Of a DNA stretch of 64,000 nt, positions 39,577 to 64,000 are shown one piece after another; positions within the stretch are counted from its first letter, which is position 1; each line of letters starts with the position of its first letter. The stretch lies in the NCBI GenBank assembly GCA_021780535.1, contig JAJXYN010000009.1, positions 150,538 through 214,537 of the forward strand, in the 5' to 3' direction. The translations under genes and the position numbers were made by a program. Below the pieces are notes generated by a model that ran no database searches, was not told where the DNA came from, and worked only from the letters and a program-made list of their open reading frames with translations. The stretch comes from a bacterium. GTDB taxonomy: Bacteria; Patescibacteriota; Patescibacteriia; JAGPKW01.

Positions 39577-39614
39577 ACTAGTGCACCCTATGCGAGTGGG
39601 TTGATTTCTCGCTA

Positions 39615-39785
39615 AAAACTAAAAAAGTGATGATTTTGTATAATATCATCACTTTTTTGTTTATATGCGTATTTGCTTGTTTTTATTGGTACTAGACTCC
39701 GTTCTGTTGTTAGTAACTTATTTCTATTATTTTTTAATGTAAGCTATTATATATAAACCAATGCGACAAAGGTTTCTCTTGATAG
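39615..39785. repeat. Direct repeat A1 (about 170 bp), paired with A2 at 59875..60043
   Basis: About 85% identical to 59875-60043 by eye. It begins with the hairpin aaaaagtgatgattttgtataatatcatcactttttt and continues gtttatatgcgtatttgcttgtttttattggtact...gtaagctattat...ccaatgcgacaaaggt. Confidence 0.8.
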
Positions 39786-39946
39786 ATATACACAGTTATT
39801 TTTTTATTTTATATTAAACAATAACTTAAAAAATTAATTAAAAATTAGTAACTTTATTAATAAATTATTAATTATGAAAAAAGTTGAATGTATAGTAAAA
39901 TATACTTATTACATTGGAGTCTTGAGCAATAATACACTAAAGCTAT

Positions 39947-40813
39947 ATGGAAAAAGAAACAAAATTAGAAAAAATATTACCATTTAGATGGGCTGGCGGT
40001 AAATATTATGCTTTAAATAAGCTAAAACAATTCTGGGAAAATTTTGAACATGATGAATATCGTGAACCGTTTTTTGGTGGTGGTGCTGTATTTTGGGCAA
40101 AACCAAAAGTTAAATTTAATTGGATAAATGATATAGATAATGGTTTAATAGATACCTTGGAATTTATACAAGATGATGAAAAAAGAATTGAACTTATAAA
40201 ACTATTTGAAAATGAACAAGAAGCCACAAAAGAGAAATATTTAAAAATAAAAGCACTTAATCCAAAAACAAAACTGGAATCGGTTTATAAATATTATTAC
40301 TTAAATAGAACTTCTTTTAGTGGTAAAATGAAAAATCCTTCATGGGGTTATAGGCCGAAAAGAAGTTTGCCTCCTATTAGATGGAAAGAAAGAATAATAC
40401 CTTGTGGTGAAAAATTAAAAGATGTAAAAATAACAAATTTAGATTTTGAAAAAGTAATATTATCTAAGGCTATTGGTAAAAAGGTTCTTATGTTTTTAGA
40501 TCCGCCATATTATAATGCTAAACAAGAAAGCCATTATACATTTTCCTTTAAAAAAGAAGATCATGAAAGATTAGCATTGGCTTGCAAAAAAACAAAACAT
40601 AGTTTTTTCTTAACATACGATGATTGTGAAGAAATTAGGAAGTTGTATTCTTGGGCAAATATATTAAGTTTAGAATTTTATTATAGACTTGATAACTCTA
40701 AAGATAATAATAACAAAAGAAAAGTTGGTTCAGAAATTATTATTACAAATTATAAATTAGAAAATATAGATAAAGAAATTCTTAAACATGCAACAATTAA
40801 AATTGATAAATGA
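39947..40813 (+). CDS. Dam-family (D12 class) N6-adenine DNA methyltransferase, copy 1
   Basis: FRWAGGKYYALNKL (Dam motif X/I), EPFFGGGAVFW (FxGxG), FLDPPYYNA (motif IV DPPY) and a C-terminal EIIITNYK typical of DpnM/Dam-like enzymes. Confidence 0.8.
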   Translation: MEKETKLEKILPFRWAGGKYYALNKLKQFWENFEHDEYREPFFGGGAVFWAKPKVKFNWINDIDNGLIDTLEFIQDDEKRIELIKLFENEQEATKEKYLKIKALNPKTKLESVYKYYYLNRTSFSGKMKNPSWGYRPKRSLPPIRWKERIIPCGEKLKDVKITNLDFEKVILSKAIGKKVLMFLDPPYYNAKQESHYTFSFKKEDHERLALACKKTKHSFFLTYDDCEEIRKLYSWANILSLEFYYRLDNSKDNNNKRKVGSEIIITNYKLENIDKEILKHATIKIDK

Positions 40814-41678
40814 TATAGTAGATAAATCTTATGCAAGTATCCAAAAATTGGATATTTCTAAAATAAAAAAATGTAAGACAGATAAAACTCGTCCATTTTT
40901 AAGATATCCTGGAAGTAAATATAATGCTTCTAAATATATAATGCCATTTTGGGATAGTATAGAATTTAACGAATATCGTGAACCTTTTTTAGGAAGCGGG
41001 GCGATTTTTTTTAAAATGCCTAAAGTTGAATATTCTTGGTTAAATGATATAGATGATGATTTGATAAATTGTTTTTCTATAATTGCAAATGAAAAAACTA
41101 GACTAGATCTAATAAAAAAAATTGAAAATTTAAAACCATCAAAAGAGTTATTTGATGATATAAAAAATACAAAACCAATAAACTCTATTGATAAAGCTTA
41201 TAGATATTTTTTAATAAACAGAATGGCTTATGGTGGAATTATGAATAAGCCAAATTGGGGGTTTCATCCAACTAAAAGCGTACAACCTGACAAATGGGGA
41301 GATAGAATAATGCAGGCTGGAATAAAACTTGAAGATAATGTAAAAATAACTAAAAAATCATATTTAGATGTGATAAATGCTGAATCAAATAATAAAGTTT
41401 GGCTATTTGTAGATCCACCATATTTTAAAGCTGATCAAAAAAGAGCTTATGCTCATTCTTTTAATTATAAAGACCACATAGAGCTACTAAATTCACTAAA
41501 AAAGACAAAACATTATTTTTGTTTGACTTATGATAATTGTGAAGAAATAAAAGAGCTTTATTCTTGGGCAAATATTTATGAAATAGAATGGATGTATCAT
41601 ACAGCTAATTCAAAAGTTGCTTCTAGAAAAATGGGTAAAGAATTAATTATATCTAATTATAAAATTCATCAGGTATAA
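40788..41678 (+). CDS. Dam-family N6-adenine DNA methyltransferase, copy 2
   Basis: RYPGSKYNASKYI, EPFLGSGAIFF, FVDPPYFKA and ELIISNYK. It is a paralogue of the upstream gene, which it overlaps by 26 nt. Confidence 0.8.
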   Translation: MQQLKLINDIVDKSYASIQKLDISKIKKCKTDKTRPFLRYPGSKYNASKYIMPFWDSIEFNEYREPFLGSGAIFFKMPKVEYSWLNDIDDDLINCFSIIANEKTRLDLIKKIENLKPSKELFDDIKNTKPINSIDKAYRYFLINRMAYGGIMNKPNWGFHPTKSVQPDKWGDRIMQAGIKLEDNVKITKKSYLDVINAESNNKVWLFVDPPYFKADQKRAYAHSFNYKDHIELLNSLKKTKHYFCLTYDNCEEIKELYSWANIYEIEWMYHTANSKVASRKMGKELIISNYKIHQV

Positions 41679-42903
41679 AATCTAACTTGTATGGGCCAGC
41701 CTCTCTAAACACAGAGTCTTCTGCAATAATATTAAATCCATTAGATTTCCCATAAGAGTCTATATCTGGAATAAACTCTATTTCTTTTTTATTATTTAAA
41801 TTTAATTTTAATTTTATATTTGGGTATAAAACATCTGAATACTCTTTTTTATTCCAATCTAATTCTTTAAAAAAATCACCTTTATTTATTTTATAATGCA
41901 TTGGTAAATCTTTTACTGGTAATAGTATAAAATGCAATTTATTGTCTAGTATAACTCTAGGTAATTGATGATTTGATATTATTACAGAAACATAATCAAG
42001 TTCATTTCTTTTGTAACCACGATTAGGAAATCTTCCATGTGTACCCATTATCTCAACACCAATTTTATTATTATCAATATCACACATATTTTTTGATGTG
42101 CCTTTTGTTTGTATTTTTATTTTATAACCATTTTTATTTTCTATTGCTACATCATATTTTGGATAAGGCCCCTCTGGTTGTATTACTTTTAAATCCTGTT
42201 TTCTCAAATATTCTTCAAACCAAAATTCTTTTAGATTTCCTTTTAAACCCATTACAGCTGCTCTAAAATATTCTGGTTTACACAACATTTCTATTATTTC
42301 ATAATCCTCCAAATATGTTTCTTTGCTTAAAAATGGCAACAAGCTATTTTTTGGAGCTATTCTATCATCTATTATTTTACCATCTATACTGTCTAGTCCT
42401 ATGACTCCCCAATTATTCAACCTCTTATTTTCCCATTCTATTTTAGCCGGATCCGCAAGATATCCATCCCACGAATTATGTTTTGGTATTTCATTATGAG
42501 GTATTATAAAAATTCCAGATTCTGGATGTTGCAAAACCAAAAAATCAAATGTTTTTTCAGATGAGTTATATAGGTTGTGTGGACGCTTTTCTAATCCATG
42601 AGTCTTATGCAAGGCTACTCCTACAAATTTATCTTTAGTTGTTGAGTTTTTAACAGGAGTTTTTAGTTGTAATTTTAAATTATTTACATATACATCTACA
42701 TCACTATCTCCCTCACCATCTTGTATGTTAATGTTATTAATATTTTTTCTTAATATTTTTTTAAAATATTCTTCAAAAGCTATGCCCTTTATTGGCCTTA
42801 GTATGTTTGCATCTTTTTGAACTATATTATCTATCATACTCCAATCTATATCATTAAGCTCTATTATTTTTTCAAATCTTAATTTTAGTTCTTCAGTTAT
42901 CAT
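41653..42903 (-). CDS. Candidate Type II restriction endonuclease partnering the two Dam-like methyltransferases
   Basis: 416-aa ORF convergent with, and overlapping, the second methyltransferase. Two PD-(D/E)xK-like segments with Q-x-K variants (DSDVDVYVNNLKLQLK and YDVAIENKNGYKIKIQTK). The call rests mainly on gene context. Confidence 0.5.
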   Translation of the reverse strand: MITEELKLRFEKIIELNDIDWSMIDNIVQKDANILRPIKGIAFEEYFKKILRKNINNINIQDGEGDSDVDVYVNNLKLQLKTPVKNSTTKDKFVGVALHKTHGLEKRPHNLYNSSEKTFDFLVLQHPESGIFIIPHNEIPKHNSWDGYLADPAKIEWENKRLNNWGVIGLDSIDGKIIDDRIAPKNSLLPFLSKETYLEDYEIIEMLCKPEYFRAAVMGLKGNLKEFWFEEYLRKQDLKVIQPEGPYPKYDVAIENKNGYKIKIQTKGTSKNMCDIDNNKIGVEIMGTHGRFPNRGYKRNELDYVSVIISNHQLPRVILDNKLHFILLPVKDLPMHYKINKGDFFKELDWNKKEYSDVLYPNIKLKLNLNNKKEIEFIPDIDSYGKSNGFNIIAEDSVFREAGPYKLDFIPDEFYN

Positions 42904-42980: not shown

Positions 42981-43613
42981 ATGAAAAATGGAACAATAAT
43001 GATAGGTGGATCAGACTCTAACGATAATTTTAGAAAAGTATTTGATTTAAAAATCACAAATGGTTTTCCTATAATATCAACTACTGATAAAGATTTATCA
43101 ATAGAATGTAATAATAAAATAATAAATCATACCAATATAAATCACATATCTATCCCGGCAGATTTAAATATTCATCTTACTGGAAAACAAAATGAACATT
43201 ATTTTTTTATCGAAAGAATTACAAATAACGGATTATTAAATAGTGATTCATATAATATTTTTAGTTTATTTAGTATGCCAATAGAAAATTATGATTTTCC
43301 AGTTGGGACATGGAATCAGGCTGAAATATTTGGAATTAAAAAAGACGGCCTATTTAATAATAAAACCGGTATGTTTGTTGAGTTTTTTGTTTTTAAAAAT
43401 AGTTTTGATTTAAATACCTTGAATGCTTTATATCCATTTAAAGATAGCTCCATGAGAGAGCCTTATATTCTTGGGCCATATAATTTTAGTGAAATTATAA
43501 GAAAGGATAGAAAAAATATAAAACCAGATTTTAAATTTGTAACAAGAGTTGGTTTTTACGAAAACACAGACAATGAATCAAAAATTATAATTCCTTTTGA
43601 TATAAGAGGTTAA
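42981..43613 (+). CDS. Hypothetical protein (210 aa)
   Basis: Open frame between the R-M module and the recombinase. Confidence 0.4.
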   Translation: MKNGTIMIGGSDSNDNFRKVFDLKITNGFPIISTTDKDLSIECNNKIINHTNINHISIPADLNIHLTGKQNEHYFFIERITNNGLLNSDSYNIFSLFSMPIENYDFPVGTWNQAEIFGIKKDGLFNNKTGMFVEFFVFKNSFDLNTLNALYPFKDSSMREPYILGPYNFSEIIRKDRKNIKPDFKFVTRVGFYENTDNESKIIIPFDIRG

Positions 43614-44902
43614 ACTTCAATAATAATTTCCTTATTTTTTATTACAAATTTACTCTTAATGCATTCAGTCAATTGTTTCTTCTGTTCTAAGTTTCCATCT
43701 CTTAGAATAAACTTAGCATAAGTTCTCATATCAATAATATCATTATGACTATCTTCTTTAGATATCCCGAGCACGTTTCTTCTAAAGCTATTATATCTCT
43801 GTATTTCTTCTTCAATAGTTTTATTAATACCTAACTCATCAACTTTCAATTTATCTATTATCTCTATAAGTTGTTTAGTTACTTCTTCTTCTCTAATATA
43901 AGTATTCTTACAATCTCTATCTCTACCGTGGGAACATCCATAATATATGTAATGCAATATTTTTCCATTTTTAAGTTTCTTTCTTTTATGTTCTCCAACC
44001 ATACCTGAGCCACATAATCCACATTTAAATAATCCTGAAAAAGTAAATTCATAAGAATTTCCATTTGAGAAACATGTATCTTTTCCAATCTTTTCTTGTA
44101 CTAAGTCATATATTTCTTTTGTAGTTAAAGTTTCGTGTTTTCCTTGATACCAATTGCCACTATCTTTAGGATATTCAAACATTCCATAATAGAATGTATT
44201 TTTTATTATTCTAAAGATATTTCCTAAACTCATCATTTTTCCATTTACTGATTTGTAGTTAATACTTTTTAACCAATCTAATATCTTTCTACCAGAACAA
44301 TTATCATAAGCTATTTTTCTAAACATTTCTGTTATTATCGGTCCTCTATATGGGTCTACATTTACATATCCTTTTTTATCTACATTCTTTTCATTTAGAT
44401 ATCCAACCGGTGCTTGTCCTATCCATAGACCCATACCAACTTTTGCTTTTAAACCTCTTTTTACATTTATACTTTTATTATCATTTTCTAGTTTAGCTTG
44501 ACCACCAAGTATCATTAACATAAATTTATCATTTGGAGTATTTTTAAATACTTGATTATATGTTCTTATTTCTTTAAGTCTATGGTTATCTATTAAGTCT
44601 ACAATCATTCCTAAGTCTCCAGCATTTCTTGAAATTCTATCAGAATTCCATGTAAGTAGAGCATCAAACATTCCATTATTTATATCTCTTATTAGAGAAT
44701 TAAAAACCTCTCTTTTTCCTGATTCTTTTGCTGAATGACTTTCTCTTCTAACCTCTACTATATTAAGTCCTTCTTTTTCTGCTATCTGTGTCATTTCTTT
44801 AATCTGAGAGTCTATTGAAAGAGCTTGTCTTTCATCTTCTTCTGTTGATTTTCTTGCATAAAGACAGTATTTTAATGGTTTTTGTTCTAATATTTGTTCC
44901 AT
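43610..44902 (-). CDS. Large serine recombinase (resolvase/invertase-type catalytic domain + recombinase domain + zinc ribbon)
   Basis: N-terminal YARKSTEEDERQALSIDSQ (catalytic Ser region), ...DALLTWNSDRISR, and a C-terminal CGLCGSGM...YYGCSHGRDRDC zinc ribbon. Confidence 0.85.
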   Translation of the reverse strand: MEQILEQKPLKYCLYARKSTEEDERQALSIDSQIKEMTQIAEKEGLNIVEVRRESHSAKESGKREVFNSLIRDINNGMFDALLTWNSDRISRNAGDLGMIVDLIDNHRLKEIRTYNQVFKNTPNDKFMLMILGGQAKLENDNKSINVKRGLKAKVGMGLWIGQAPVGYLNEKNVDKKGYVNVDPYRGPIITEMFRKIAYDNCSGRKILDWLKSINYKSVNGKMMSLGNIFRIIKNTFYYGMFEYPKDSGNWYQGKHETLTTKEIYDLVQEKIGKDTCFSNGNSYEFTFSGLFKCGLCGSGMVGEHKRKKLKNGKILHYIYYGCSHGRDRDCKNTYIREEEVTKQLIEIIDKLKVDELGINKTIEEEIQRYNSFRRNVLGISKEDSHNDIIDMRTYAKFILRDGNLEQKKQLTECIKSKFVIKNKEIIIEV

Positions 44903-44904
44903 AT

Positions 44905-44937
44905 ATTAATGTGTTATTTATTATCTAACACATTAAT
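44905..44937. promoter_or_regulatory. 12-bp perfect inverted repeat abutting the recombinase start codon
   Basis: attaatgtgtta-N9-taacacattaat, 3 nt upstream of the serine recombinase ATG. Could be an operator or recombination site. Confidence 0.35.
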
Positions 44938-45028
44938 GACGCAACCCATCTAGTGCGTCTAGAGTGCATAGTTGATAAGTAATAAGCAAAGATATATTAT
45001 TTAAATATAAACTATGAATTAAATAATT

Positions 45029-46615
45029 ATGATTTATGTTACTGGTATGTATAACGGACGGTATTTGTATGTAGATGAAGGTATAGGAAAAATTAGGCAC
45101 CTATGCATTAGTAGTAATCAATTAAGAGAATCTGATATTAAAATATTTTTTTCTTCTTATAATTTGTCAAATTTACTAATTGAATTTGGAAAAAGATCAA
45201 TAAAAATATTTTTTTCTAATGAAAATGTAGGTGTTGTAAAAATAGAAAATATAGATGTCCATATAGGGCAATTTCAATTAATATATCTTTCTATGGTTTC
45301 TATATTATCTACAAATTGGTATAAAAAAGAAGAATTAAAATATCCAGAAAGTGCAATAAATTACTTATCATGGTTTTATGGAACATATCTCTTAGATGAT
45401 ATTGAATTGGTAAAGGAAAATTATGAAAAATATTTTTTGAAAATGTACTGTACACAAATATTAGAATCACAATTTGATTCTCATATTGAATTGAGTAGAA
45501 ATATTTTTATGTTTTTTAAATTATTACCAGAATTAATGGTTAAGTATAAAAAATTAGAAACATTTTTTAATAGAATTTTAGATTTAATGAATAATGAATT
45601 TGGAATAAAAAATATTGGCGATTATTTTGCTTTGATAAATATAGAAATAAATAAAATAAAAGAAACAGGTAGTCCTTTAATAAAATTAAATAACAGTAGT
45701 CCGTTGTATATAAATACAAAAAAAATAATAGATTTTTATTCAATAGATTATAGAAAGTTTAGGACTATACATGATAATCAAAATATAGATATTAAAGAAC
45801 ATCAAGTTAGATACTCATATAATCCTTTATGGAGATATCCAATTATAAGGAAAGATGATGAATTTGATGCTTATATTATTCCTAATATATCTATTTTATT
45901 TAAGAAAACAATTGATTTTTATTGGTCTTTTGGGTTTTTATATGAAAAATATGGATATAATATACCAAAATTTAGAGAAAAATATGGGTATATTTTTGAA
46001 GAATACGTTGGTTGTGTTTTAGAAAAAATATATGATAGCAGAACTTATGCCGGTGATTTATATGGCCCAAATAATCACCAAGAACTTTCTGATTATATAT
46101 TAGAAGAAGTTGATAAATTTTATTTTTTTGACGCTAAAGCTGATGTTTTAGATCTTAATGCAATAAAACATGGGGAAACCGAAAAGGTTTGCAATAAACT
46201 TTTTGAACATATCAGACAAAGATTTGATAGGTTGATGGATATAAAATATTTTCATGAACTAAAAAAATATAGAAGTAAAGAAATTTTTAATATAATAGTA
46301 TTAAAAGAAATACCATTTATAGAACATGCTGGGTTTTATGCAACCGAATTAAATAAAAAAATAGAATCTCTAGCTAATACAAATATTAAATATAAGGATA
46401 TAAAAAAGATGAAGTATTTTTTTATAAATATATCAGATCTAGAGCATTTTTATTTGCTTAAAGATAAATACAAAATAGAAGAAGCTATAGGAATTGTTTA
46501 TAACAATAATGGCATAGGGTTTAAAAGCCTTATAGACCCGAAAGATTATGAAAAAAATGGTTTTATCTTTGATGATGAAGTAGAAAAAATATTAAAAGGA
46601 ATTATAAAAAAGTAG
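45029..46615 (+). CDS. Hypothetical protein (528 aa)
   Basis: Long open frame in the island. No motif recognised. Confidence 0.4.
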   Translation: MIYVTGMYNGRYLYVDEGIGKIRHLCISSNQLRESDIKIFFSSYNLSNLLIEFGKRSIKIFFSNENVGVVKIENIDVHIGQFQLIYLSMVSILSTNWYKKEELKYPESAINYLSWFYGTYLLDDIELVKENYEKYFLKMYCTQILESQFDSHIELSRNIFMFFKLLPELMVKYKKLETFFNRILDLMNNEFGIKNIGDYFALINIEINKIKETGSPLIKLNNSSPLYINTKKIIDFYSIDYRKFRTIHDNQNIDIKEHQVRYSYNPLWRYPIIRKDDEFDAYIIPNISILFKKTIDFYWSFGFLYEKYGYNIPKFREKYGYIFEEYVGCVLEKIYDSRTYAGDLYGPNNHQELSDYILEEVDKFYFFDAKADVLDLNAIKHGETEKVCNKLFEHIRQRFDRLMDIKYFHELKKYRSKEIFNIIVLKEIPFIEHAGFYATELNKKIESLANTNIKYKDIKKMKYFFINISDLEHFYLLKDKYKIEEAIGIVYNNNGIGFKSLIDPKDYEKNGFIFDDEVEKILKGIIKK

Positions 46616-48830: not shown

Positions 48831-49218
48831 CTTCTTTTTTATATAATGGTGATTTTTGAAGTGCTGAAATGATTCTCATCTTGTCGTCATTAGAAAGTTT
48901 TGATTCTATTACAGCATCAATAAGTTTTGATTTATTTCTATATCTATCATGATTATGAGTTAACCAAAATTTAACGGATTCTATTTTTCCATCTTTAACA
49001 TTCTTAATTAATGCATTTTCAGCAACATCATTTATAGTTTCTATTCCTACATGTATTTTTTCATCGACCTTTGTTTTAAATTTTGGATCTTTTTTAAACC
49101 ATTCATAAATGGTAGATCTTGGAATATTTAATTTAACACAAACACTCTGCACTATAGGATATTCTTCTATAAGCTCTAAAAACTTTTTCTTAAGTTGTGT
49201 CTGTATTTTTCTATCCAT
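48811..49218 (-). CDS. Small HTH protein, terminase small subunit-like
   Basis: 135 aa with the HTH VCVKLNIPRSTIYEWFKK. It lies immediately upstream of, and overlaps, the TerL-like gene. Confidence 0.5.
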   Translation of the reverse strand: MDRKIQTQLKKKFLELIEEYPIVQSVCVKLNIPRSTIYEWFKKDPKFKTKVDEKIHVGIETINDVAENALIKNVKDGKIESVKFWLTHNHDRYRNKSKLIDAVIESKLSNDDKMRIISALQKSPLYKKEDEQIVE

Positions 49219-56878: not shown

Positions 56879-56883
56879 AAAAT

Positions 56884-57708
56884 ATGACAAAAAATTCATA
56901 CGATAAAATTTGGGGTTATGTAGAAAAGCTTTATATACATTGTTATAGAGTCGACGGTTTTGTTAAATTTTTAAAATCTAATGAAATATTACTACCAGAC
57001 GATTTCTATAATAATTTTGAAATATATTCTTTTATGACAACTGAGAATTGTAATTTCTCCGATTTTATGATTTCGAATGTTGATGATAGTAAATATAAAA
57101 AAATAATTAGCCAAGTGATATTTGATAAAAAAATTATTAAAACAAAGGATATTGATTGGAATTATCTTGGAGTTAAAATAAAAGAGTGGTATCCAAAATT
57201 ACTTAAAGAAGTAGATAATGTTAAAATATCTCTGTATGAAAACATAAACGAGAAAGATTTGTTAATATATAATACAAAAAACCCATTTCTCGATCATTTA
57301 ATATCAGAGATTAATGATACTTATAATAATAAAAACTATGTAGCAGTAATAATGTTGATGAGAAAATTAATGGAATGCATGATAATAATAATATTTGAAA
57401 CATATTTTCCAAAAACTCACAAAGGAACATTCAATAAATCAAATCACGAATTATGGTATAACTATAGCACTCGTAGATATCAAGAATTTGAAACATTATT
57501 ATCTAATCTAGACTTAAAGCAAAATGATTTTCATGAAGATAGATTCTTAGTATCTGATACTTGCAAGGTTATAAAAAAATTCAAAGACGAGGCTAATAGA
57601 ATAGTCCATAGAGACTATAAAATACCAGATAAGATGATAGTTGATAATTATAAAATACCAGAAATGTATAATATGATTGCTAAAATATATAGCAAATATT
57701 GTTCATGA
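56884..57708 (+). CDS. Hypothetical protein (274 aa), same operon as the NTPase and TIR genes
   Basis: Starts 6 nt after the NTPase stop. No motif recognised. Confidence 0.45.
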   Translation: MTKNSYDKIWGYVEKLYIHCYRVDGFVKFLKSNEILLPDDFYNNFEIYSFMTTENCNFSDFMISNVDDSKYKKIISQVIFDKKIIKTKDIDWNYLGVKIKEWYPKLLKEVDNVKISLYENINEKDLLIYNTKNPFLDHLISEINDTYNNKNYVAVIMLMRKLMECMIIIIFETYFPKTHKGTFNKSNHELWYNYSTRRYQEFETLLSNLDLKQNDFHEDRFLVSDTCKVIKKFKDEANRIVHRDYKIPDKMIVDNYKIPEMYNMIAKIYSKYCS

Positions 57709-57776
57709 ATATAAAAATAATACGACCACTTCATGTAGCAATGAAGTAACCACTAAATAAAAATTTAAAAATAAAT

Positions 57777-58814
57777 ATGCCAGAAAATAATAACGAAATG
57801 GATTTAGATGAATCTATAAAAAAAATTATAGAAATTCAAAATTTGATAAGACAAGGTCTAGCAAGGCCAGATGAAAAAAACAATGCTTTCAAAATAGCAA
57901 AAGATGCTACATCTAATTTTACAGATGATATTTTTAAAAGAAGAGCTGAAAAAGAAGAAAGAAATACGGGTTGGTCGGTGCAAACACACGATGGGTTTGT
58001 AGCCTCATCAGAAGCTAGTCAATTAGACGGACTTCTAAATTTATTAAAGGAATATAGAGACACTTTTTATTCTACAAAAAATACTGAGCAAAATTATCCA
58101 GAAATAGAAAAAAATGAAGAAATAGAAAAAGATATTAATAATTTTGGTTCAAAAATATTTATTAGCTATAACACAAAACATAAAAATTTTGCCGGAAAAA
58201 TAAAAGAGTCACTTTATGAAAATAAGATAGATTCTTTTTTAGCACATGAAGATTTAGAAGTATCTACTGAATGGAAAATAGAAATATTAGAAGCTCTAAA
58301 AAAATCAAATGTATTTATAATATTACTTTCTAGCGATTATTATGAATCTCCTTGGTGTTATCAAGAGTCTGGAATTATAGCTTATTTAGAAAATTTTAGA
58401 GATAATGTAACAATAATACCAATTTCTATAGATGGCACAATTCCAAAAGGATTTATTGGTCATAGACAATCTAAACCAATAATAAATATGGAAGAATTTG
58501 ATTTTTCTATACTTTTGCCAGGTTTATTTATTGATAATCCTGATTGGGTTGTAAATTTTTTAATTAAAAAAATAGAAGGGTCAGGAAGTTTTAGAAATGC
58601 CGAAAATAATTTTGAAAAAATATTACCATACTTAGGAAAAATGAATAAAAAATATGGTAAAAAATTACTAGAAGTATGCGTAAAAAATGACCAAATTTAT
58701 AATGCTAGTCTTTGTATAGGTGAATATATATCAAAAGCAATAGCTTTGTATGGCGATTTATTAAGTAAGGAAGATCTAGATTTTTTAAATAATAAAATTG
58801 AAGCCTATAAATAA
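57777..58814 (+). CDS. TIR-domain protein
   Basis: Central region DIFISYNTKHKNFAGKIKESL...SNVFIILLSSDYYESPWCYQESGI has the TIR hallmarks: FISY start, hydrophobic core strand, and SxWCxxE with a conserved Glu. It is flanked by about 120-aa N-terminal and about 100-aa C-terminal extensions of unknown function. Confidence 0.7.
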   Translation: MPENNNEMDLDESIKKIIEIQNLIRQGLARPDEKNNAFKIAKDATSNFTDDIFKRRAEKEERNTGWSVQTHDGFVASSEASQLDGLLNLLKEYRDTFYSTKNTEQNYPEIEKNEEIEKDINNFGSKIFISYNTKHKNFAGKIKESLYENKIDSFLAHEDLEVSTEWKIEILEALKKSNVFIILLSSDYYESPWCYQESGIIAYLENFRDNVTIIPISIDGTIPKGFIGHRQSKPIINMEEFDFSILLPGLFIDNPDWVVNFLIKKIEGSGSFRNAENNFEKILPYLGKMNKKYGKKLLEVCVKNDQIYNASLCIGEYISKAIALYGDLLSKEDLDFLNNKIEAYK

Positions 58815-58825
58815 GTGTGCTATAT

Positions 58826-58988
58826 AAATAAATCTAATATTAGCCAATAATTATCAACACAAGTCAATCAAATACTACACTACGTACTGTCCAATTTGTC
58901 CAATTTTTTCTATTGAAAAATGAGATGCTAGTGCATCTCATTTTATATTCTCTGAAGTATCAAAACGCTTGCTGGTATTGAACTCAAT
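58826..58988. repeat. Direct repeat B1 (about 160 bp), paired with B2 at 62287..62446
   Basis: atctaatattagccaataattatcaa...aatttgtccaattttttctattgaaaaatgagatgctagtgcatctcatttt...ctgaagtatcaaaacgcttgctggtattgaact. Contains a terminator-like hairpin. About 85-90% identical to B2. Confidence 0.75.
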
Positions 58989-59089
58989 GCGTACCCAACG
59001 CGACTGTTGAGCCAAGTAGTATAAGTGACTCTATTGCGTCACTCACAAAAATAAGCCACTTTACTGTGGTTTATTTTTAATTTAAAAAA

Positions 59090-59875
59090 ATGTTAAAAAA
59101 GGAAATTTGTGAAATTATATATAAAAATGCTTATGATATCTTATTAAATGAGATTGGAAAACATGATTTAGAATTACATTTAGAAAATGACTCTAAATTT
59201 AATGATATAAATACAATAACATATAGATTAATATCTTCTGCACAAAACAGGCAAATGATGCCTAATGTGATAAAATTTCATAAAAATGAAGAAGCAATGA
59301 AAAATATTCTATTTAATTTTTCACATAATAATATATTAAATACTTATAAAAATAGTGAGTTATTGTTAAATATATTTAAAAAAAAATTTAGTAGCGCAAA
59401 AATATCTAATGAAAAAAGAAATTTATGGTTTCAATTTTCTGAAAGTATTTTTTCAATATGTAATTTTATGTCTAACTTTAAAGATGAAAAAGAATTTAAC
59501 AATTTTGTTAAATCATTTAATTTCAATAAATACACAAAAGCCTCTTTACCAATGCTTTTAAGTACAGAAATAAAGGGCTTTAGATTTGCTTTAGCTTGTG
59601 ATTTTTTAAAAGAATTAGGTTATAGAGAATACCCAAAGCCAGACATTCATCTAATTGATATATTTTATGAATTAAAACTTTCCGAAAGTAGAGATCCTTA
59701 TGATGTATATAAAAATATAGTTGAGTTTTCTGAAATTATAAATATTGATGCTTATTCTGTTGATAAGATTTTTTGGTTATTATCTTCTGGTGATTTTTAT
59801 AGAATAAACAAAACAATGAAATCTAAGAAAAAAGAATTTATTGAAATGATGAAAAATAAATTATCCATTAATTAA
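59090..59875 (+). CDS. Hypothetical protein (261 aa)
   Basis: Open frame between repeat B1 and repeat A2. Confidence 0.4.
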   Translation: MLKKEICEIIYKNAYDILLNEIGKHDLELHLENDSKFNDINTITYRLISSAQNRQMMPNVIKFHKNEEAMKNILFNFSHNNILNTYKNSELLLNIFKKKFSSAKISNEKRNLWFQFSESIFSICNFMSNFKDEKEFNNFVKSFNFNKYTKASLPMLLSTEIKGFRFALACDFLKELGYREYPKPDIHLIDIFYELKLSESRDPYDVYKNIVEFSEIINIDAYSVDKIFWLLSSGDFYRINKTMKSKKKEFIEMMKNKLSIN

Positions 59876-60043
59876 AAAACTAAAAAAGCGATGATTTTGT
59901 ATAATATCATCACTTTTTTATTTATGTGCGTATTTGCTTGTTTTTATTGGTACTGTACCCTCTTCTATTGTTATTAACTTATTTTCTTTATTTTTTTATG
60001 TAAGCTATTATAAATAAGCCAATGCGACAGAGGTCTCTCGACC
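59875..60043. repeat. Direct repeat A2, paired with A1 at 39615..39785
   Basis: aaaaagcgatgattttgtataatatcatcactttttt atttatgtgcgtatttgcttgtttttattggtact...gtaagctattataaataagccaatgcgacagaggt. Same hairpin and downstream blocks as A1. Confidence 0.8.
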
Positions 60044-60089
60044 TTTTAAATAAAGAGTTTTATAATAATTATGAATATAAATTATAAAA

Positions 60090-61376
60090 ATGGGACCATC
60101 ATTAATATTTGATAAATCTACTTTACAAGGTTTAAATCCAGACGAATCTGTGTGGCTCGAACATTTTTATATTAACAACATTACACCATTATTTTTTGTT
60201 GAGACATTGGCTGATTTAGAACTTGAAATGAAAAAAGGTAGAACACCTGAAGATATCGTTGGAAATTTGGCTTATAAAACTCCAGAAATGGCTAAAGTAA
60301 ATGCATATCATAGAAATTTAATACAATCAGAATTATTATATGATGATTGTATTATTGAAATGTCAGGAAGACCGGTACTGCCAGGTGGAAGAACTGTTGT
60401 TTCTGATGGAAAAATTGGAATAATATTTGACGAATCTCCAGAAAATGAAGCTTTCAAAAGATGGCAAAAATCCGAATTTTTAGAAATAGAAAGAAGTATA
60501 GCAAAGACATGGAGGTTGTCTTTAAATGAAATAAATACAGAACAAAATTTTAATAATGCTAAGATTTTTTTTAATATATTAAATAAGTCAAAAACATTAG
60601 ATGATCTTAAAACAAATATTGATAGAATTTTAGATGTTCCTAAAAACGAAGAAATATTAAAAAATTCTTTATACATAATGAATATATCTGATAGTGCTCA
60701 TGATTCAATAATAAAAAAATTTAGAGAATCCAAATTTCAAACAATTAAAGAAATTTTTCCATACTTTGCTTATGTTCTATCTGTTGATTTGTTTTTATAT
60801 TTTGGCAGTGATAATAATCTATTTTCTTTCCTTCCACATTCTGCAACACATAAGGTTGATATGGCTTATTTTTATTATTTGCCTTTTTGCAATATTTTTA
60901 CATCAAATGACAAACTACACGTAGCCTTATCAAAGTATTTTATGAGACAAGATCAGGCATTTATTAATGGATCTGACTTAAAAAATGAACTTAAAAGGCT
61001 TGATGAATATTATTCTAAATTTTCAGAAGAAGTAAAAGCTAGAGGTCTTTTTTCTCTTGCACCTTGTCCACCAGATGAAATTGATTCTTTGACTGTTAAA
61101 ATGTGGGATAAATATATGAGTAAAGATTGGAGGGAAATAAAAAATAGAATTAGAAAATTTGATGGGTCAGATAAAATAAACCCCGAAGCTAATAAAGTTA
61201 TTTTGGACAAAATCAAAGAGATGATGCAAAAATCAAAAACAGTGGAAGATGGAGCTTTGCACAATTCTGACGATGCAGATAGTATAATTATTAGACATAT
61301 GGTAAAAGCAAAAAAAGGAAAATGGACTAAGTTTCCACCAGAGGTTTTAAAATCTAAACCTCTTATGGAAGATTAA
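60090..61376 (+). CDS. Hypothetical protein (428 aa), candidate cargo gene of a decayed recombinase cassette
   Basis: Open frame lying between repeat A2 and a serine-recombinase gene fragment, in the same relative position as the R-M module is to A1 and the intact recombinase. Confidence 0.45.
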   Translation: MGPSLIFDKSTLQGLNPDESVWLEHFYINNITPLFFVETLADLELEMKKGRTPEDIVGNLAYKTPEMAKVNAYHRNLIQSELLYDDCIIEMSGRPVLPGGRTVVSDGKIGIIFDESPENEAFKRWQKSEFLEIERSIAKTWRLSLNEINTEQNFNNAKIFFNILNKSKTLDDLKTNIDRILDVPKNEEILKNSLYIMNISDSAHDSIIKKFRESKFQTIKEIFPYFAYVLSVDLFLYFGSDNNLFSFLPHSATHKVDMAYFYYLPFCNIFTSNDKLHVALSKYFMRQDQAFINGSDLKNELKRLDEYYSKFSEEVKARGLFSLAPCPPDEIDSLTVKMWDKYMSKDWREIKNRIRKFDGSDKINPEANKVILDKIKEMMQKSKTVEDGALHNSDDADSIIIRHMVKAKKGKWTKFPPEVLKSKPLMED

Positions 61377-61600
61377 TTATTCAATAATTATTTCTTTATC
61401 TTTTATTAAAAATTTACTCTTGATGCACCCCGTTAATTGTTTCTTCTGTTCTATATTTCCATCTCTCAATATAAACTTAGCATAAGTTTTCATATCAATA
61501 ATATCATTGTGATTATCTTCTTTAGATATGCCAAGAACGTTTCTTCTAAAACTATTATATCTCTGTATTTCTTCTTCTCTAATATAAATTTAAGCATGAA
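61376..61600 (-). pseudogene. Truncated remnant (3' about 220 bp) of a second large serine recombinase gene
   Basis: About 88% nucleotide identity by eye to 43610-43830, the C-terminal coding end of the intact recombinase. Similarity stops abruptly near 61600. Confidence 0.7.
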
Positions 61601-61646
61601 TAATGGACTTTTTAATGTTTTTATGCTAATAAATTAGTAATAACAT

Positions 61647-62249
61647 ATGGAGGTTTATATGAACTTATCAAAATTAATTGATTCTTTTGTGAATAATGAA
61701 AGGAATGAAGATGTTCTTTTCTATTTTCAAGAAATCTTCAATCAAGAAGGTTTTGGACAGAATAGATTTCATAAGTATGACGTTCTAAATCACACAAGAA
61801 AACTAGTAAAACAGTACAGGAAAGCTGATTTTATCTCTGAAAAAGTAAGAACCTATCTTTCTGAAATTATTGATGGTATTTCCAAAGACCTACTACTCCA
61901 AGTTGCTATGTGCTTTCATGATTCTGGAAAGAAAATAATGAAAGACTCTACCGGAAGTATGAAAGGACATGCTGAATATACTGTAAAAAATCAACTTGAA
62001 GAAATATCTAAAAGATTTGGTTTTACAGAAAATCAGAAAATGTATGTCGGCAATATTATTCTTTATCATGACTTCATCTTGAGTGATAGTGAAGAAGTAA
62101 ATAAATTCTTGAAAGATAATCACATTGAAGTCGAAGGATTAATTATTTCTCTAGTAGATATTCTTTCTACCCAAGGTGAGGAAGCTTTTGGTGAAGAAGA
62201 TATGACAAGAATTGATTTTGGTAAAGAAAAATTGTTGAATGTTTTGTAG
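61647..62249 (+). CDS. HD-domain phosphohydrolase-like protein
   Basis: FHKYDVLNHT...VAMCFHDSGK fits the H...HD metal-binding motif of the HD superfamily. Confidence 0.5.
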   Translation: MEVYMNLSKLIDSFVNNERNEDVLFYFQEIFNQEGFGQNRFHKYDVLNHTRKLVKQYRKADFISEKVRTYLSEIIDGISKDLLLQVAMCFHDSGKKIMKDSTGSMKGHAEYTVKNQLEEISKRFGFTENQKMYVGNIILYHDFILSDSEEVNKFLKDNHIEVEGLIISLVDILSTQGEEAFGEEDMTRIDFGKEKLLNVL

Positions 62250-62286
62250 TAATACCTCAATTTTGATATTGAGGGCTTTTATTTTA

Positions 62287-62446
62287 TTAAATATCTAATA
62301 TTAGCCAATAATTATCAATATAAGTCAATCAAATACTACGCTACATACTGTTCAATTTGTCCAATTTTTTCTATTGAAAAATGAGATGCTAATGCATTTA
62401 AGACACTCTTCTCTGAAGTATCAAAATGCTTGCTGGTATTGAACTA
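62287..62446. repeat. Direct repeat B2, paired with B1
   Basis: Same atctaatattagccaataattatcaa...ttctattgaaaaatgagatgcta...ctgaagtatcaaaatgcttgctggtattgaact blocks as B1. The hairpin is partly degraded. Confidence 0.75.
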
Positions 62447-62489
62447 AATATGGTGGATTAGTTTTAAATTTGACTTTATTGTTTAAAAG

Positions 62490-62846
62490 ATGTATAATAT
62501 GTATATTGAATTCCATAGGAGGGGTTTTATGTTAAAAGTTCAAAGAAACGAAAAAACTCCCAACATTGTGGAGTTTTATAGTGAAGAGTACAAGGATGGC
62601 AAAGAGCCTGAAATTACTCTTAATGAAGAGACTGGTTCACTTATTCTCTACAAGACTTTCAAACATGTTCCAATTGAAATTAATGTAATGTTTGAAGTCA
62701 AAATGAAAAGAGAAAAACGAAAAAGAACAGAGGATGAAAAAAAACTTCTAAAATCTCAACTGACTCAGAAATGTAGTCATTCTGGAGATGAAATAAGAAT
62801 AATTTCTTCATTCAATGATTATTACTCGTTTGAGACTAGTCATTGA
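62490..62846 (+). CDS. Hypothetical protein (118 aa)
   Basis: Open frame preceded by GGAGG (62518-62522). Confidence 0.4.
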   Translation: MYNMYIEFHRRGFMLKVQRNEKTPNIVEFYSEEYKDGKEPEITLNEETGSLILYKTFKHVPIEINVMFEVKMKREKRKRTEDEKKLLKSQLTQKCSHSGDEIRIISSFNDYYSFETSH

Positions 62847-62881
62847 TGAGCAAGCTAAAATAACAGCCTGCTCTTTTTATT

Positions 62882-63589
62882 TTATGCCGATAAAGCATCT
62901 AAAGCATTTTCATAAGACTTTATTATACTTAGATATTGTCTTACTACTTCTATCTTATATTCTCTTGGAAGATTTGTATTACTCTTAATTTCATCTTTAT
63001 CTTCCTCTATTTTAATCAAAGCTACTTCTAGTCTAGATTTTCTTTCATCTAATGACCTTTTATCATCAAGCATATCAAAAGTTTCAATGCCATAAATATA
63101 TGAACTTAAATTTTCAAACTCTCTACTTTCAATTGATTCTTTGCAAAGATTCATATTTTCAATATTTCTTTCTAAATCTAGAATAGCATCTGGATTTGTA
63201 TTGCTTTCTAATCTTTTTTGCAATCTAGCTATAGTTTCATTAAACTTATCAATATATGCTTGTTTTAATAAAGGAATACCATCTTCTAATAGTTCTGAGA
63301 ATATTTCATTATCTATTCTTCTTTTTAAATTTCCTGCATTATATGCACTTGGAATTTCTTCTTTTTGTCTTGATAGTCTAGCAACCATTTTACCTATTTC
63401 TGGACTTCTAACACTGGCATTATCCATCTGTTTTCTAAGAAAACTATCTATCTTTGAAAAATAACCATATAAAGTGGTTTTTAATTCTATTAAATCTTTA
63501 TCGTCATCATTTAATTTTTCTCCTAAATTCCTTCTTCTTTCTTCTTCTGTTGGGTTTACTTTCCATTCATTTGAGTTATCTAATGACAT
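62882..63589 (-). CDS. Hypothetical protein (235 aa, predicted coiled-coil rich)
   Basis: Open frame. No motif recognised. Confidence 0.4.
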   Translation of the reverse strand: MSLDNSNEWKVNPTEEERRRNLGEKLNDDDKDLIELKTTLYGYFSKIDSFLRKQMDNASVRSPEIGKMVARLSRQKEEIPSAYNAGNLKRRIDNEIFSELLEDGIPLLKQAYIDKFNETIARLQKRLESNTNPDAILDLERNIENMNLCKESIESREFENLSSYIYGIETFDMLDDKRSLDERKSRLEVALIKIEEDKDEIKSNTNLPREYKIEVVRQYLSIIKSYENALDALSA

Positions 63590-63732
63590 ACCTATTATTT
63601 TATTAATTATATGAGCTTATTATACTTAAATAAATTACTTGAATCAAATATATAAACAAAAAACAACTCCGATGATTATCTACAGTTTTATCATGCTGAA
63701 ACAAAAAGAAGATGTATTAATTGCATCTTCTT

Positions 63733-64000
63733 TTATTTATAAAGTTTTACTTTTACGTTATTTTTATATTTATTATAATCAAACCATTTTCTCATTATTA
63801 TATATTGCATTAGTCCGAAAAATATTATTATACCTATCATTCCTAAGGCCTTTACTGGTTCTAATGGTTTTATGTCAAAAAAATGTGATAATGGAGCATT
63901 ATACATTACAAATAATAAAAATATTATAATTATAAATGCGAATAAATATAATGCTTTTTTTTCTTTTTTATCACTTGAGGCACCATAAGCTTTTGGTGCT
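63733..64000 (-). CDS. Hypothetical membrane protein, 3' part (start beyond window end)
   Basis: Frame open from the window edge to TAA at 63733-63735. Encodes ...ALYLFAFIIIIFLLFVMYNAPLSHFF...GMIGIIIFFGLMQYIIMRKW..., i.e. two TM helices. Not in the ORF track because it has no in-window start. Confidence 0.35.
   Translation of the reverse strand, partial: APKAYGASSDKKEKKALYLFAFIIIIFLLFVMYNAPLSHFFDIKPLEPVKALGMIGIIIFFGLMQYIIMRKWFDYNKYKNNVKVKLYK

Follow-up and report, generated by a model that had tools for sequence, protein, structure and literature searches.

An accessory island beginning at a tRNA-Asn gene in Patescibacteria carries a candidate capsid-less, terminase-encoding cassette

Introduction

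Phage satellites of the PICI/SaPI and P4-like kinds are compact, integrative elements without virion structural genes, which carry packaging genes and, by the integrase, a variable anti-phage cargo. Defence hotspots in these satellites were reportedly described by Rousset et al. in 2022. To our knowledge, no satellite described so far encodes more than TerS or a redirecting factor, and the TerL used is that of the helper. Tycheposons are a further group of relevance here: 474 of 501 carry tyrosine recombinases, with a replication module, and the PICI-like ones carry MCP and terS (Hackl et al., bioRxiv 10.1101/2020.12.28.424599).

Here we analyse a stretch of 64,000 nucleotides from a Patescibacteria genome (the window), in which the 24 kb that follow a tRNA-Asn gene are confirmed as a real accessory island. 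We consider it likely that the segment from 39577 to about 63,650 is composite, was seeded at the 3' end of tRNA-Asn, and holds an intact satellite-like cassette, a defence block and a decayed copy of the cassette.

As in the tycheposon model, the island opens at a full-length tRNA with the intact element proximal; older degenerate elements, fragmented integrases and tRNA snippets lie distally, cargo and defence genes accumulate, and integrase clades pair with particular tRNAs (bioRxiv 10.1101/2020.12.28.424599). Unlike tycheposons, the cassette has a large serine recombinase, both terminase subunits and two methylases, no replication module was recognised in it, and no partial-tRNA direct repeats flank it. 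With PICI satellites it shares an integrase, packaging genes, the lack of structural genes and a compact size (about 5.5-6 kb without cargo). It differs from PICI and P4-like satellites in encoding both TerS and TerL, and no primase, rep or repressor family (Pfam, NCBIfam, PHROGs) or capsid-size-redirection gene was recognised in it; we know of no helper phage for it. SCC elements (Ccr) are similar in their large serine recombinase, their site-specific insertion at the 3' end of a conserved gene, and their composite tandem arrays in which some copies lack a working recombinase. The best NCBIfam name for the recombinase is CcrB, far below the cut-off (95 bits against 900). Unlike SCC, the cassette targets a tRNA flank and not rlmH, has a single recombinase gene together with a terminase and methylase module, shows no detected flanking direct repeats and belongs to a different host phylum. 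Finally, serine-integrase temperate phages (phiC31, Bxb1, A118, pneumococcal prophages) share the integrase domain architecture and the terminase, but the cassette is without portal, capsid, tail and lysis genes, and its integrase and TerL are at most 29% identical to any deposited phage integrase or TerL.

Results

The island is anchored to the chromosome, and bounded on its left, by tRNA-Asn(GTT) (39501-39576, forward strand; ARAGORN and Rfam), which lies downstream of TruB and is conserved at about 90%, along with some 70-110 nt of its 5' flank, in the related loci L027, L029 and L031. Annotation agrees with an earlier note that the genes upstream are housekeeping genes, with some hypotheticals among them: 23S/5S rRNA, RecQ, LeuRS, 2-oxoacid:ferredoxin oxidoreductase, an MFS transporter, TsaD, GroEL (with the Cpn10 gene adjoining), TsaE, a flippase, tRNA-Tyr, CmpB, TruB and G6PD. 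The mixture that the note had read downstream, of restriction-modification (R-M), recombinase, packaging, methylation, candidate defence and hypothetical genes, is likewise borne out. From 39577 on, we find an R-M system, two recombinases, TerS/TerL, two DNA methylases, a STAND NTPase, a TIR protein and, across the island, nine ORFs without a significant family match.

The tRNA is followed directly by a GC-rich junction segment of 37 nt (39577-39613, forward strand), which appears to be element-derived and is a candidate integrase-binding arm of attL. It is missing in L027, sits beside tRNA-Asn in L016 and L029, and in L026 adjoins a tRNA-like end that is degenerate. Family members located at other tRNAs also show a CTAYSCGRG-like motif, 10-25 nt beyond the end of the tRNA.

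The core of the tRNA-proximal element is encoded on the reverse strand. Its 430-aa recombinase gene (43610-44902) is intact, and all three of its Pfam domains (Resolvase, Recombinase and Zn_ribbon_recom) score above cut-off. It matches the PHROG 95 integrase at 2e-66, and its YARxS catalytic motif does not vary among 30 family members; by its domains and motif, the conserved recombinase is a large serine recombinase and not a tyrosine integrase. Relatives are abundant: 7,999 of the best 8,000 word-sharing candidates scored reach E<=1e-40, with identities of 53-59% among the 120 matches listed except for four at 86-90%. The stretch upstream of the gene (44903-44982, reverse strand), which contains GGGTTGCGTCATTAATG and the palindromic TAATGTGTTA/TAACACATTA, is kept in L016, L026, L032 and in loci whose recombinases are about 52% identical. 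Homology past the recombinase start ends at 44948 in L016 and at 44982 in L026, and two Logan contigs from different samples break at 44933-44961; in assemblies, such breaks are at most suggestive of excision or integration activity. The packaging and methylation genes comprise TerL (47406-48830; PHROG 38 at 5e-85), TerS (48811-49218; TerS PHROGs), an N6/N4 methylase (49211-49954) and a ParB-domain methylase (49964-51241), the latter two matching PHROG 498 methylases. These assignments also draw on Pfam and NCBIfam.

This arrangement recurs in related loci. We surveyed 69 related IMG/VR loci, looking at about 3-7 kb to either side of the cassette, and about 45 of them have ParB-methylase, methylase, TerS, TerL and large serine recombinase in this order and orientation, in a layout that continues with cargo and an oppositely oriented tRNA. 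A tRNA gene lies 0.1-5.6 kb past the recombinase stop in 21 of the 69 loci, convergent in every one of these and representing seven tRNA types, and no tRNA was found upstream of the cassette within up to 7 kb. The trimming of IMG/VR proviruses at tRNAs may inflate this adjacency; it does not explain the strand asymmetry, and the convergent placement is also seen in the independent metagenome loci L040, L082 and L118. The TerL clade (at least 33% identity) is specifically linked to these methylases and TerS, a link that is never seen for more distant TerLs. A Pfam scan of 142 neighbouring ORFs from the 69 loci gave no portal, capsid or tail family, although other family members may carry structural genes further out; these ORFs include type I R-M, ThsB-TIR, reverse transcriptase/bAvd, AAA_15/21 and KAP NTPase families. 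The phage-like genes thus appear, from gene order and content, to form a recurrent cassette and not random prophage scrap. We found no description of such a cassette family in the literature.

The strongest competing explanation is that of ordinary decayed prophages, in which one or two serine-integrase temperate phages entered at tRNA-Asn and lost their structural genes by deletion, leaving the terminase and methylases as roleless leftovers and the defence genes as morons. TerL, TerS, the ParB-methylase and the integrase are indeed phage hallmark genes, the 69 related regions are classed as viral by IMG/VR, TerL is truncated in L026, the window's second copy shows clear decay, and some cassettes have an S24 peptidase repressor-like gene and an HTH_17 gene nearby. 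However, had decay been random, about 45 of 69 diverged loci would not have retained the same set of five intact genes with a common upstream limit. The Walker A/B and nuclease motifs of TerL are conserved in 32 copies with identities of 35-44%, no 14-kb stretch shows a recurrent cluster of structural genes, and the TerL clade was never seen in a standard phage context in the 80 loci examined. In the locus itself, a phage-type terminase and an integrase are present, and the 24 kb of the island and the 10 kb beyond hold no virion structural or lysis genes and no match to structural phage gene families. We therefore regard decayed prophages as unlikely. An intact terminase and methylases in an element devoid of head and tail genes suggest the lifestyle of a satellite, the explanation that we favour.

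Across the family, two cargo slots contain R-M and other defence genes, often with an orphan LOOT RNA; their contents include R-M systems, helicases, RelA/SpoT and PADLOC candidate systems. In the window, the first slot, between the recombinase and the tRNA, is filled by a two-methylase R-M system and ORF210. The Dam-family N6-adenine methylases (39947-40813 and 40788-41678, both forward strand) match Pfam MethyltransfD12 at 4e-30 and 2e-24, with the NCBIfam dam subfamily below cut-off, and they are followed by a candidate PD-(D/E)XK endonuclease (41653-42903, reverse strand; a weak PDDEXK_5 match at 0.003). The R-M position is occupied by Bsp6I/C5-MTase in L016, by an MmeI-type enzyme in L026 and by a 1263-aa ORF in L032. 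ORF210 (42981-43613, forward strand) is convergent with the recombinase gene and overlaps its stop codon; a homologue with 79% identity takes the same position in L016 and L019, and no match was found in Pfam, PADLOC, PHROG or PDB. The second slot, between TerL and the recombinase, contains ORF528, the LOOT RNA and a zinc-ribbon membrane ORF. ORF528 (45029-46615, forward strand) is missing from the related loci compared and has no match in Pfam, PADLOC, PHROGs or PDB; its NCBIfam match is sub-threshold (E 2e-4, 20.6 bits against a cut-off of 235), with no passing stretch. The LOOT RNA (Rfam RF03000; 46682-46816, forward strand) is a full-length model match at 71.9 bits against a gathering score of 46.4, and it occupies the same slot on the same relative strand in L026, L162, L163, L170 and L171. 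Directly downstream lies ORF165 (46896-47393, forward strand), a zinc-ribbon and transmembrane protein (weak Pfam DZR, PHROG 13160), and ORFs of this type also follow LOOT in L162 and L026.

Distal to the cassette is a Xer-like tyrosine recombinase of 310 aa (51654-52586, forward strand; Pfam Phage_integrase at 2e-32), which scores below cut-off against NCBIfam XerA, XerD and XerC. It has no homologue in the related loci and hence lies outside the conserved cassette. The candidate defence block that follows (52603-58814, forward strand) comprises the transmembrane ORF146, a 1274-aa STAND NTPase (53054-56878, forward strand; Pfam nSTAND_NTPase5 and NB-ARC, weak), ORF274 and a TIR-domain protein (57777-58814, forward strand; TIR_2 at 4e-18), with ThsB-like and PDC-S66 matches in PADLOC. 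An integron was considered and rejected, as integron-integrase models score far below cut-off and the tyrosine recombinase scores as Xer-like. The repeats described below were likewise rejected as attC sites: B is coding, and for A and C no hairpin other than a terminator is supported.

Long direct repeats had been noted as interspersed in the island, and we recover three pairs of 165-198 nt, each about 89% identical (self-BLAST E-values 1e-55 to 1e-70). Repeat A (A1 39614-39778, A2 59875-60039, forward strand) consists, in its first copy, of a terminator-like palindrome and about 110 nt of conserved non-coding sequence, 77-93% identical to the copies in L016, L026 and L032; covariation gives no support for a structure in it. 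Repeat B (B1 43616-43813, B2 61380-61577) is the 3' end of the serine recombinase gene, whose second occurrence is a stump of the last ~66 codons (61377-61577, reverse strand), cut off upstream by a stop, and its translation aligns with the C-terminus of the intact protein. Repeat C (C1 58825-58988, C2 62288-62449, forward strand) lies, in its first copy, within a feature at 58821-59026 (forward strand) that ends in a tRNA-Asn-like snippet; it is 86% identical to L016/L047, with homology continuing to 59021. The second copy, C2, is the last mobile-element landmark in the island. Between these landmarks are ORF261 (59090-59875, forward strand) and ORF428 (60090-61376, forward strand), both without family match, and an HD-domain protein (61647-62249, forward strand; Pfam HD at 3.5e-4, just below cut-off). 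A2 is without the 37-nt junction segment and opens the second module, ORF428 fills its A-to-recombinase slot, and A, B and C follow in the same order as in the first. The window carries a second, decayed copy of the module (A2, ORF428, recombinase stump, HD, C2).

The attachment sites are less clearly marked. A duplicated 3' tRNA-Asn fragment, which the earlier note had suggested looking for as attR, was not recovered: a 25-mer search with up to 3 mismatches returned the tRNA itself only. The sole candidate for an att duplication is a rearranged 19-nt snippet at 59002-59020, GACTGTT joined to GAGCCAAGTAGT, which matches the tRNA end plus junction at 11 of 12 positions. Neither an att duplication nor an inverted-repeat partner of the post-tRNA arm, itself conserved across the family, stood out from the shuffled null in 21 loci, and a proposed TAGT core has no statistical support. 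No excised form, same-species empty site or circular junction was seen in assemblies.

Relatives were chosen via TruB (78-84% identical, genus-level), as the best relative of G6PD reaches at most 33% identity. These genomes retain TruB and tRNA-Asn and differ in what follows. In L027, the 91% nucleotide similarity to the window stops exactly at 39577, and a plain terminator leads into DUF2779, NUDIX, a reverse transcriptase, an Eco57I-like R-M system and an Alw26I-type endonuclease. In L029/L032, the same junction, repeat A and a serine recombinase 89% identical to that of the window are found, with the 1263-aa ORF in place of the R-M system. Because L027 is without the island genes and L029/L032 have the same module with other cargo, this is an insertion hotspot and not ancestral sequence, which supports the tRNA-associated hotspot that had been proposed; the same genes in the same order were not found in these relatives. 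In other MAGs, the recombinase module is 84-88% identical at the nucleotide level and accompanies four different cargos, whereas the closest relatives share core genes at just 72-82% nucleotide identity. Codon usage, one of the signals that had been suggested, differs slightly but significantly between island and core (JS 0.0119 against a null of 0.005 +/- 0.0013), while GC content (0.251 against 0.258) does not mark the island and its tetranucleotide usage resembles the core.

These data also bear on whether the module is a domesticated, non-mobile part of the host, with the methylases and terminase in a cellular or defence role (for example, methylated self DNA being spared while the terminase nuclease cuts foreign DNA) and the hotspot reshuffled by homologous recombination and not by integration. 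Such a role would fit the defence genes around the cassette, the lack of att repeats, the two tandem TerL genes in some loci and the host-like composition. Yet the large serine recombinase is a constant member, strictly oriented with respect to seven different tRNA genes, similarity between genomes is higher for the module than for core genes, and the retention of TerS with TerL points to recognition and packaging of specific DNA; we judge this explanation very unlikely. Least probable of all is an ancestral variable region, inherited vertically and lost in relatives: GC and tetranucleotide usage do match the core, but the unrelated genes directly after the tRNA in L027, the other cargo in L029/L032, the recombinase module common to MAGs whose other flanking genes differ and the departing codon usage leave it largely refuted.

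The right-hand boundary of the composite island had been placed outside the window. Its final 270 nt (63733-64000) belong to a P-type ATPase gene, of which they form the 3' end; the 10 kb past the window encode transporters, a hydrolase and regulators. These cellular-type genes indicate that the island probably ends inside, near 63.6-63.7 kb, as judged by gene function; the P-type ATPases of relatives, at about 30% identity, are not orthologues of the neighbouring ones. ORF118 (forward strand) and ORF235 (reverse strand), at 62490-63589 and without family match, would form its distal end.

Discussion

We propose that the tRNA-proximal 11.7 kb are one intact member of a widespread Patescibacteria element family, whose core (ParB-methylase, methylase, TerS, TerL and large serine recombinase) lies on one strand with the 3' end of the recombinase gene facing the 3' end of the tRNA. 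The recombinase would insert the element beside the tRNA; element-derived sequence begins no more than about 10 nt past the end of the tRNA. The terminase that the element encodes would package its methylated DNA into helper-phage capsids, either after excision or in situ. Beyond the cassette, the Xer-like recombinase and the STAND/TIR block are followed by the older, decayed copy of the same module, an arrangement that fits displacement of older insertions from the tRNA by newer ones, with later deletion. Large serine recombinases normally cannot integrate into attL. Tandem accretion would thus have to proceed in another way, for instance by homologous recombination among the A, B and C repeats.

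As a kind, a tRNA-seeded island is ordinary, and the cassette family appears to be the new part. Taking these points together, we suggest tentatively, as a possibility somewhat short of an even chance, that the ParB-methylase/methylase/TerS/TerL/large serine recombinase cassette represents a so far undescribed class of integrative elements in Patescibacteria that encode a terminase and no capsid. Such an element would dock 3' of many different tRNA genes, carry an orphan LOOT RNA as well as exchangeable defence cargo at two fixed positions, and spread by packaging its own methylated DNA into helper-phage capsids or by a lateral-transduction-like packaging of adjacent cargo. In this way, it may build the tRNA-proximal defence islands of these reduced genomes.

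A variable island at a conserved tRNA gene

The window has a GC content of about 25%, and its proteins have their nearest named relatives in Patescibacteria/Paceibacterota. The genes to the left of tRNA-Asn(GTT) (39501-39576) are housekeeping ones, as the earlier note had described, namely 23S and 5S rRNA, RecQ, LeuRS, a 2-oxoacid:ferredoxin oxidoreductase, an MFS transporter, TsaD, GroEL (with its listed Cpn10 neighbour), TsaE, a flippase, tRNA-Tyr, CmpB, TruB and G6PD. This last gene (38025-39311, minus strand) lies between TruB and tRNA-Asn, and a search of 5.8 billion proteins returned no relative of it above 33% identity, which makes it unusable for an empty-site test. In genus-level relatives, this position holds either nothing or a 219-aa ORF; G6PD seems specific to the window's genome and, as the last gene before tRNA-Asn, may itself be an acquisition. 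Further to the left, three tandem 31-nt units (ATCCGCCTTCGTCAAGACTACGGCG...), GC-rich in this 25% GC genome, are present at 11133-11225, with a fourth related copy 8 kb away (19453-19483), and a similar GC-rich stretch flanks the element at another compared locus, L026 (approximately 9745-9830). A CRISPR array was ruled out for these units, as they have no spacers.

The empty-site test was moved from G6PD to TruB, which has relatives at 78-84% identity. In the genus-level relative L027 (TruB 78%), tRNA-Asn directly follows TruB, and the nucleotide similarity to the window (91% over 39435-39577) then ends; beyond the tRNA are a plain terminator, DUF2779, NUDIX, a reverse transcriptase, an Eco57I-like enzyme and an Alw26I-type endonuclease. 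Defence-type genes occupy 7933-17712 of this locus despite the lack of a recombinase module, the reverse transcriptase being 593 aa long. In a second such relative, L029 (TruB 80%), the GC-rich junction of the window also adjoins tRNA-Asn, and the start of repeat A (90%) comes next; in the A hairpin L029 overlaps with L032, a contig of the same sample series, on which a 1263-aa ORF and a recombinase of 89% identity come after it. Therefore, the tRNA is chromosomal and conserved, and the content after it is variable. The accessory insertion proposed in the earlier note is borne out, since the relatives do not carry the same genes in the same order (unrelated content in L027, other cargo in L029/L032), and the tRNA-Asn site is a hotspot whichever element sits there. 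The observation of a tRNA-associated island is thus confirmed and its interpretation as an insertion hotspot supported; as a tRNA island it is ordinary. With regard to composition, GC content gives no signal (0.251 versus 0.258), whereas codon usage shows a modest shift, beyond 500 of 500 random partitions.

The island starts with a 37-nt GC-rich segment, followed by repeat A1 (39614-39778), two Dam-family methylases and a weak PD-(D/E)XK ORF, which together probably form a type II R-M system, then ORF210 and a large serine recombinase (430 aa, minus strand). In window order, the recombinase is followed by ORF528, a LOOT RNA and the zinc-ribbon/transmembrane ORF165, by TerL, TerS, an N6/N4 methylase and a ParB-domain methylase (all four on the minus strand), and by an Xer-like tyrosine recombinase, a transmembrane ORF, a 1274-aa STAND NTPase, ORF274 and a TIR protein. 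The distal part comprises repeat C1, ORF261, A2, ORF428, B2, an HD protein, C2, ORF118 and ORF235. Thus, the R-M, recombinase, packaging, methylation and candidate defence genes, hypotheticals and long repeats noted earlier on this side are all there. A PDB sequence search gave no match for ORF528, ORF210 or ORF428. Neither the Xer-like recombinase nor the STAND/TIR block has a counterpart at the related loci, and they may represent a separate insertion.

A P-type ATPase gene begins at 63733, and beyond the window come a second ATPase (the pair spans 63.7-68.8 kb), a hydrolase, SdpI, an ArsR-type regulator and a beta-lactamase-fold protein. Judged from gene function only, the right boundary of the island, previously placed outside the window, probably lies within it, near 63.6-63.7 kb. 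The ATPases at this edge are not orthologous to that of the relatives. P-type cation ATPases also occur near TruB/tRNA-Asn or the island in L028 (7426-9942), L031 (3466-5985) and L016 (552-3167), and these are only 26-32% identical to the two next to the island.

A recurrent terminase-methylase-recombinase cassette

Among the 8000 best word-sharing candidates for the recombinase, 7999 scored at E ≤ 1e-40; the 120 matches listed show 53-59% identity, bar four at 86-90%, and every named source among those listed is a member of the Patescibacteria. One group of loci, recovered from many samples (L016-L025), has a recombinase 86% identical to that of the window (84% at the nucleotide level) and contains tRNA-Asn, repeat A, a Bsp6I/C5-methylase R-M system, an ORF210 homologue (79%) and the recombinase, with repeat C further on. 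Similarly, L026 (recombinase 90% identical) combines repeat A and part of C with an MmeI-type enzyme, the recombinase, a LOOT RNA and a TerL stump. The core genes of the nearest relatives have only 72-82% nucleotide identity. In the slot that separates the recombinase from the tRNA-side end, the cargo differs each time: Dam-type R-M, Bsp6I R-M, an MmeI-type enzyme, the 1263-aa ORF or ORF428. In a 17-mer scan of metagenome contigs, 13 of the 120 matches were real family loci, most others being due to chance. A group I intron (L016 13827-14539; Rfam 100.7 bits), which carries an HNH-type ORF of about 110 aa, splits the anticodon loop of the tRNA-Asn of L016-L025; this tRNA adjoins the same recombinase module in a different Patescibacteria lineage from that of the window.

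An alignment of 30 recombinases, used as the query, retrieved 69 IMG/VR loci at 41-56% identity. By tblastn and clustering, the only recurrent neighbours were TerL (48 ORFs), TerS (46) and the two methylases (77), and about 45 of the 69 loci share the order methylase(s), TerS, TerL, zero to three genes and recombinase on one strand. The window has the identical order on the minus strand, from 51241 down to 43610, with ORF165, LOOT and ORF528 between TerL and the recombinase. When 142 other ORFs on the 5' side were compared with Pfam, type I R-M subunits, D12 methylases, AAA_15/AAA_21, a reverse transcriptase with bAvd, ThsB-TIR, a KAP NTPase and an S24 peptidase were matched, and no portal, capsid or tail family was found among them. 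Across the family, the slot between recombinase and tRNA contains C5 methylase, MutH-like endonuclease, type IIG enzymes, SF1/SNF2 helicases and RelA/SpoT, as well as several PADLOC candidate systems. Six IMG/VR contigs have two recombinase-family members each (3300032737_000190, 3300014208_000734, 3300014205_009253, 3300042286_000458, 3300009873_002614 and 3300000970_000154); on the first, two complete cassettes are separated by roughly 37 kb, as calculated from the locus ranges, and in the second the two recombinase genes seem, on our reading, to face outward near both contig ends.

Although 32 TerL copies share only 35-44% identity with that of the window, they retain Walker A (RGSaKST), Walker B (DLIicDD.ED) and the nuclease aspartates. 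In a TerL-centred scan, 24 of the 27 loci at ≥33% identity had a methylase upstream and 19 had TerS, and neither was present in any of the 53 loci at ≤32%. A first scan of viral contigs with TerL alone as query gave no match, and the closest deposited phages reach at most 29% identity for TerL (Mu-like) and for the recombinase. Some cassettes (L183, L185, L188, L192, L194 and L221) have two full-length TerL genes in tandem, which is unusual in a phage packaging module; these copies are about 40% identical to the TerL of the window. The phage-like genes are a conserved, apparently functional cassette located beside tRNA genes amid defence genes, and not a random remnant. That the terminase is kept and virion genes are missing suggests, by inference only, a satellite-like way of life. 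We found no description of such a cassette in CPR in the open-access literature searched.

The LOOT RNA of the window (Rfam RF03000; 46682-46816, plus strand; 71.9 bits) has counterparts in L026 (3406-3527), L162 (4181-4306), L163 (6190-6308), L170 (3990-4119) and L171 (2426-2543). In all six family elements it occupies the TerL-to-recombinase slot on the strand opposite to the recombinase, with a small zinc-ribbon and/or transmembrane ORF within about 80 nt after it. We found no described function for this RNA, which may act in cis as a leader and not as a free sRNA.

Probable integration beside tRNA genes

In 21 of the 69 IMG/VR loci, the recombinase stop is followed 117-5635 nt later by a tRNA, in all 21 on the opposite strand with the 3' ends facing, and up to 7 kb upstream of the recombinases no tRNA was present in any of the 69. 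These tRNAs are of the Ser, Gln, Glu, Asp, Asn, Arg and Trp types, and independent metagenome loci show the same convergent layout with His and Arg. In addition, the sequences after different tRNAs have in common a CTAYSCGRG-like motif, 10-25 nt past the tRNA end. The strict orientation to many tRNAs, together with this motif, points to integration of the element by the recombinase on the 3' side of the tRNA. The duplicated 3' fragment of tRNA-Asn (attR) that the earlier note proposed to look for did not turn up, as no second copy of the tRNA 3' end was found, nor any duplicate of the 28-nt junction. Long att duplications are not expected of serine recombinases, so their absence from the window fits integration by such an enzyme.

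About 60 nt upstream of the recombinase gene (44903-44982) are conserved (AGTTAYCAAC...ACCC.CTCTRGAC...GGGTTGCGTCATYAATG), also in L040, L113, L118, L147, L152 and other loci, even at approximately 52% recombinase identity. Homology between close relatives often ends just outside this region, and contigs break there too; it may act as an operator or a recombination site, or mark a junction between modules. One such Logan contig break, at 44933-44961 in two samples, could reflect repeated promoter copies. Logan contig breaks in tRNA-Asn are uninformative as polymorphism, since tRNA-Tyr breaks likewise. TAGT-core inverted repeats that would bound a 5.4-kb tRNA-to-recombinase unit (39577-39605 versus 44942-44975) are plausible by eye only, in the window and L118, and failed a shuffled-null test; local alignment in the 21 loci found no inverted partner of the post-tRNA arm above shuffled queries, and the distal end of the intact element was not located by this search.

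A reduced second copy

Self-BLAST revealed three direct-repeat pairs of about 89% identity, A1/A2 (39614-39778 and 59875-60039), B1/B2 (43616-43813 and 61380-61577) and C1/C2 (58825-58988 and 62288-62449), which are collinear (A1<B1<C1 and A2<B2<C2). B1 corresponds to the 3'-terminal part of the recombinase gene, and B2 translates into the final 66 residues of a recombinase closely related to it, the rest being cut off by an upstream stop; between A2 and this stump lies ORF428 as different cargo. Because the repeats are collinear and B2 is a recombinase end, 59875-62449 amounts to a second, strongly reduced copy of this kind of module. An integron-like cassette array was rejected, as the tyrosine recombinase is Xer-like and repeats A, B and C are not attC-like. 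Repeats A and C showed no covariation indicative of a structured RNA, with too few diverged copies to compare, and Rfam matched nothing other than LOOT and tRNA.

The accretion model described for tycheposons (bioRxiv 10.1101/2020.12.28.424599) fits the layout of the window, with the intact copy proximal and the decayed copy distal. At the end of repeat C1 (59002-59020), a 19-nt snippet, GACTGTT|GAGCCAAGTAGT, resembles the tRNA-Asn anticodon loop fused to the 3' end and the first junction bases, and the L016 copy of repeat C has the same snippet, more decayed; it may be an old attachment-site scar. Because a serine recombinase would not normally re-use an occupied site, homologous recombination among the A, B and C repeats may have taken the place of repeated integration.

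Implications

Patescibacteria (CPR) have very small genomes, and little is understood of the ways in which they acquire and exchange defence genes. To our knowledge, few mobile elements have been recognised in them. According to a 2019 paper, CRISPR-Cas is rare in CPR; the same paper described a prophage that was among the first for this group. If the phage-like genes were prophage debris only, the finding would be an ordinary tRNA island; the part worth following is the conserved terminase-methylase-serine-recombinase cassette with its two cargo slots and LOOT RNA. This cassette provides a genomic home for the LOOT motif, and its family constitutes a set of large serine recombinases targeting tRNA flanks that may be of interest to genome engineers. 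Moreover, a compact element recurring at tRNA genes across the phylum, with both terminase subunits and two methylases, without virion genes and with two slots of R-M or other defence genes, would be a concrete vehicle for the formation of defence islands.
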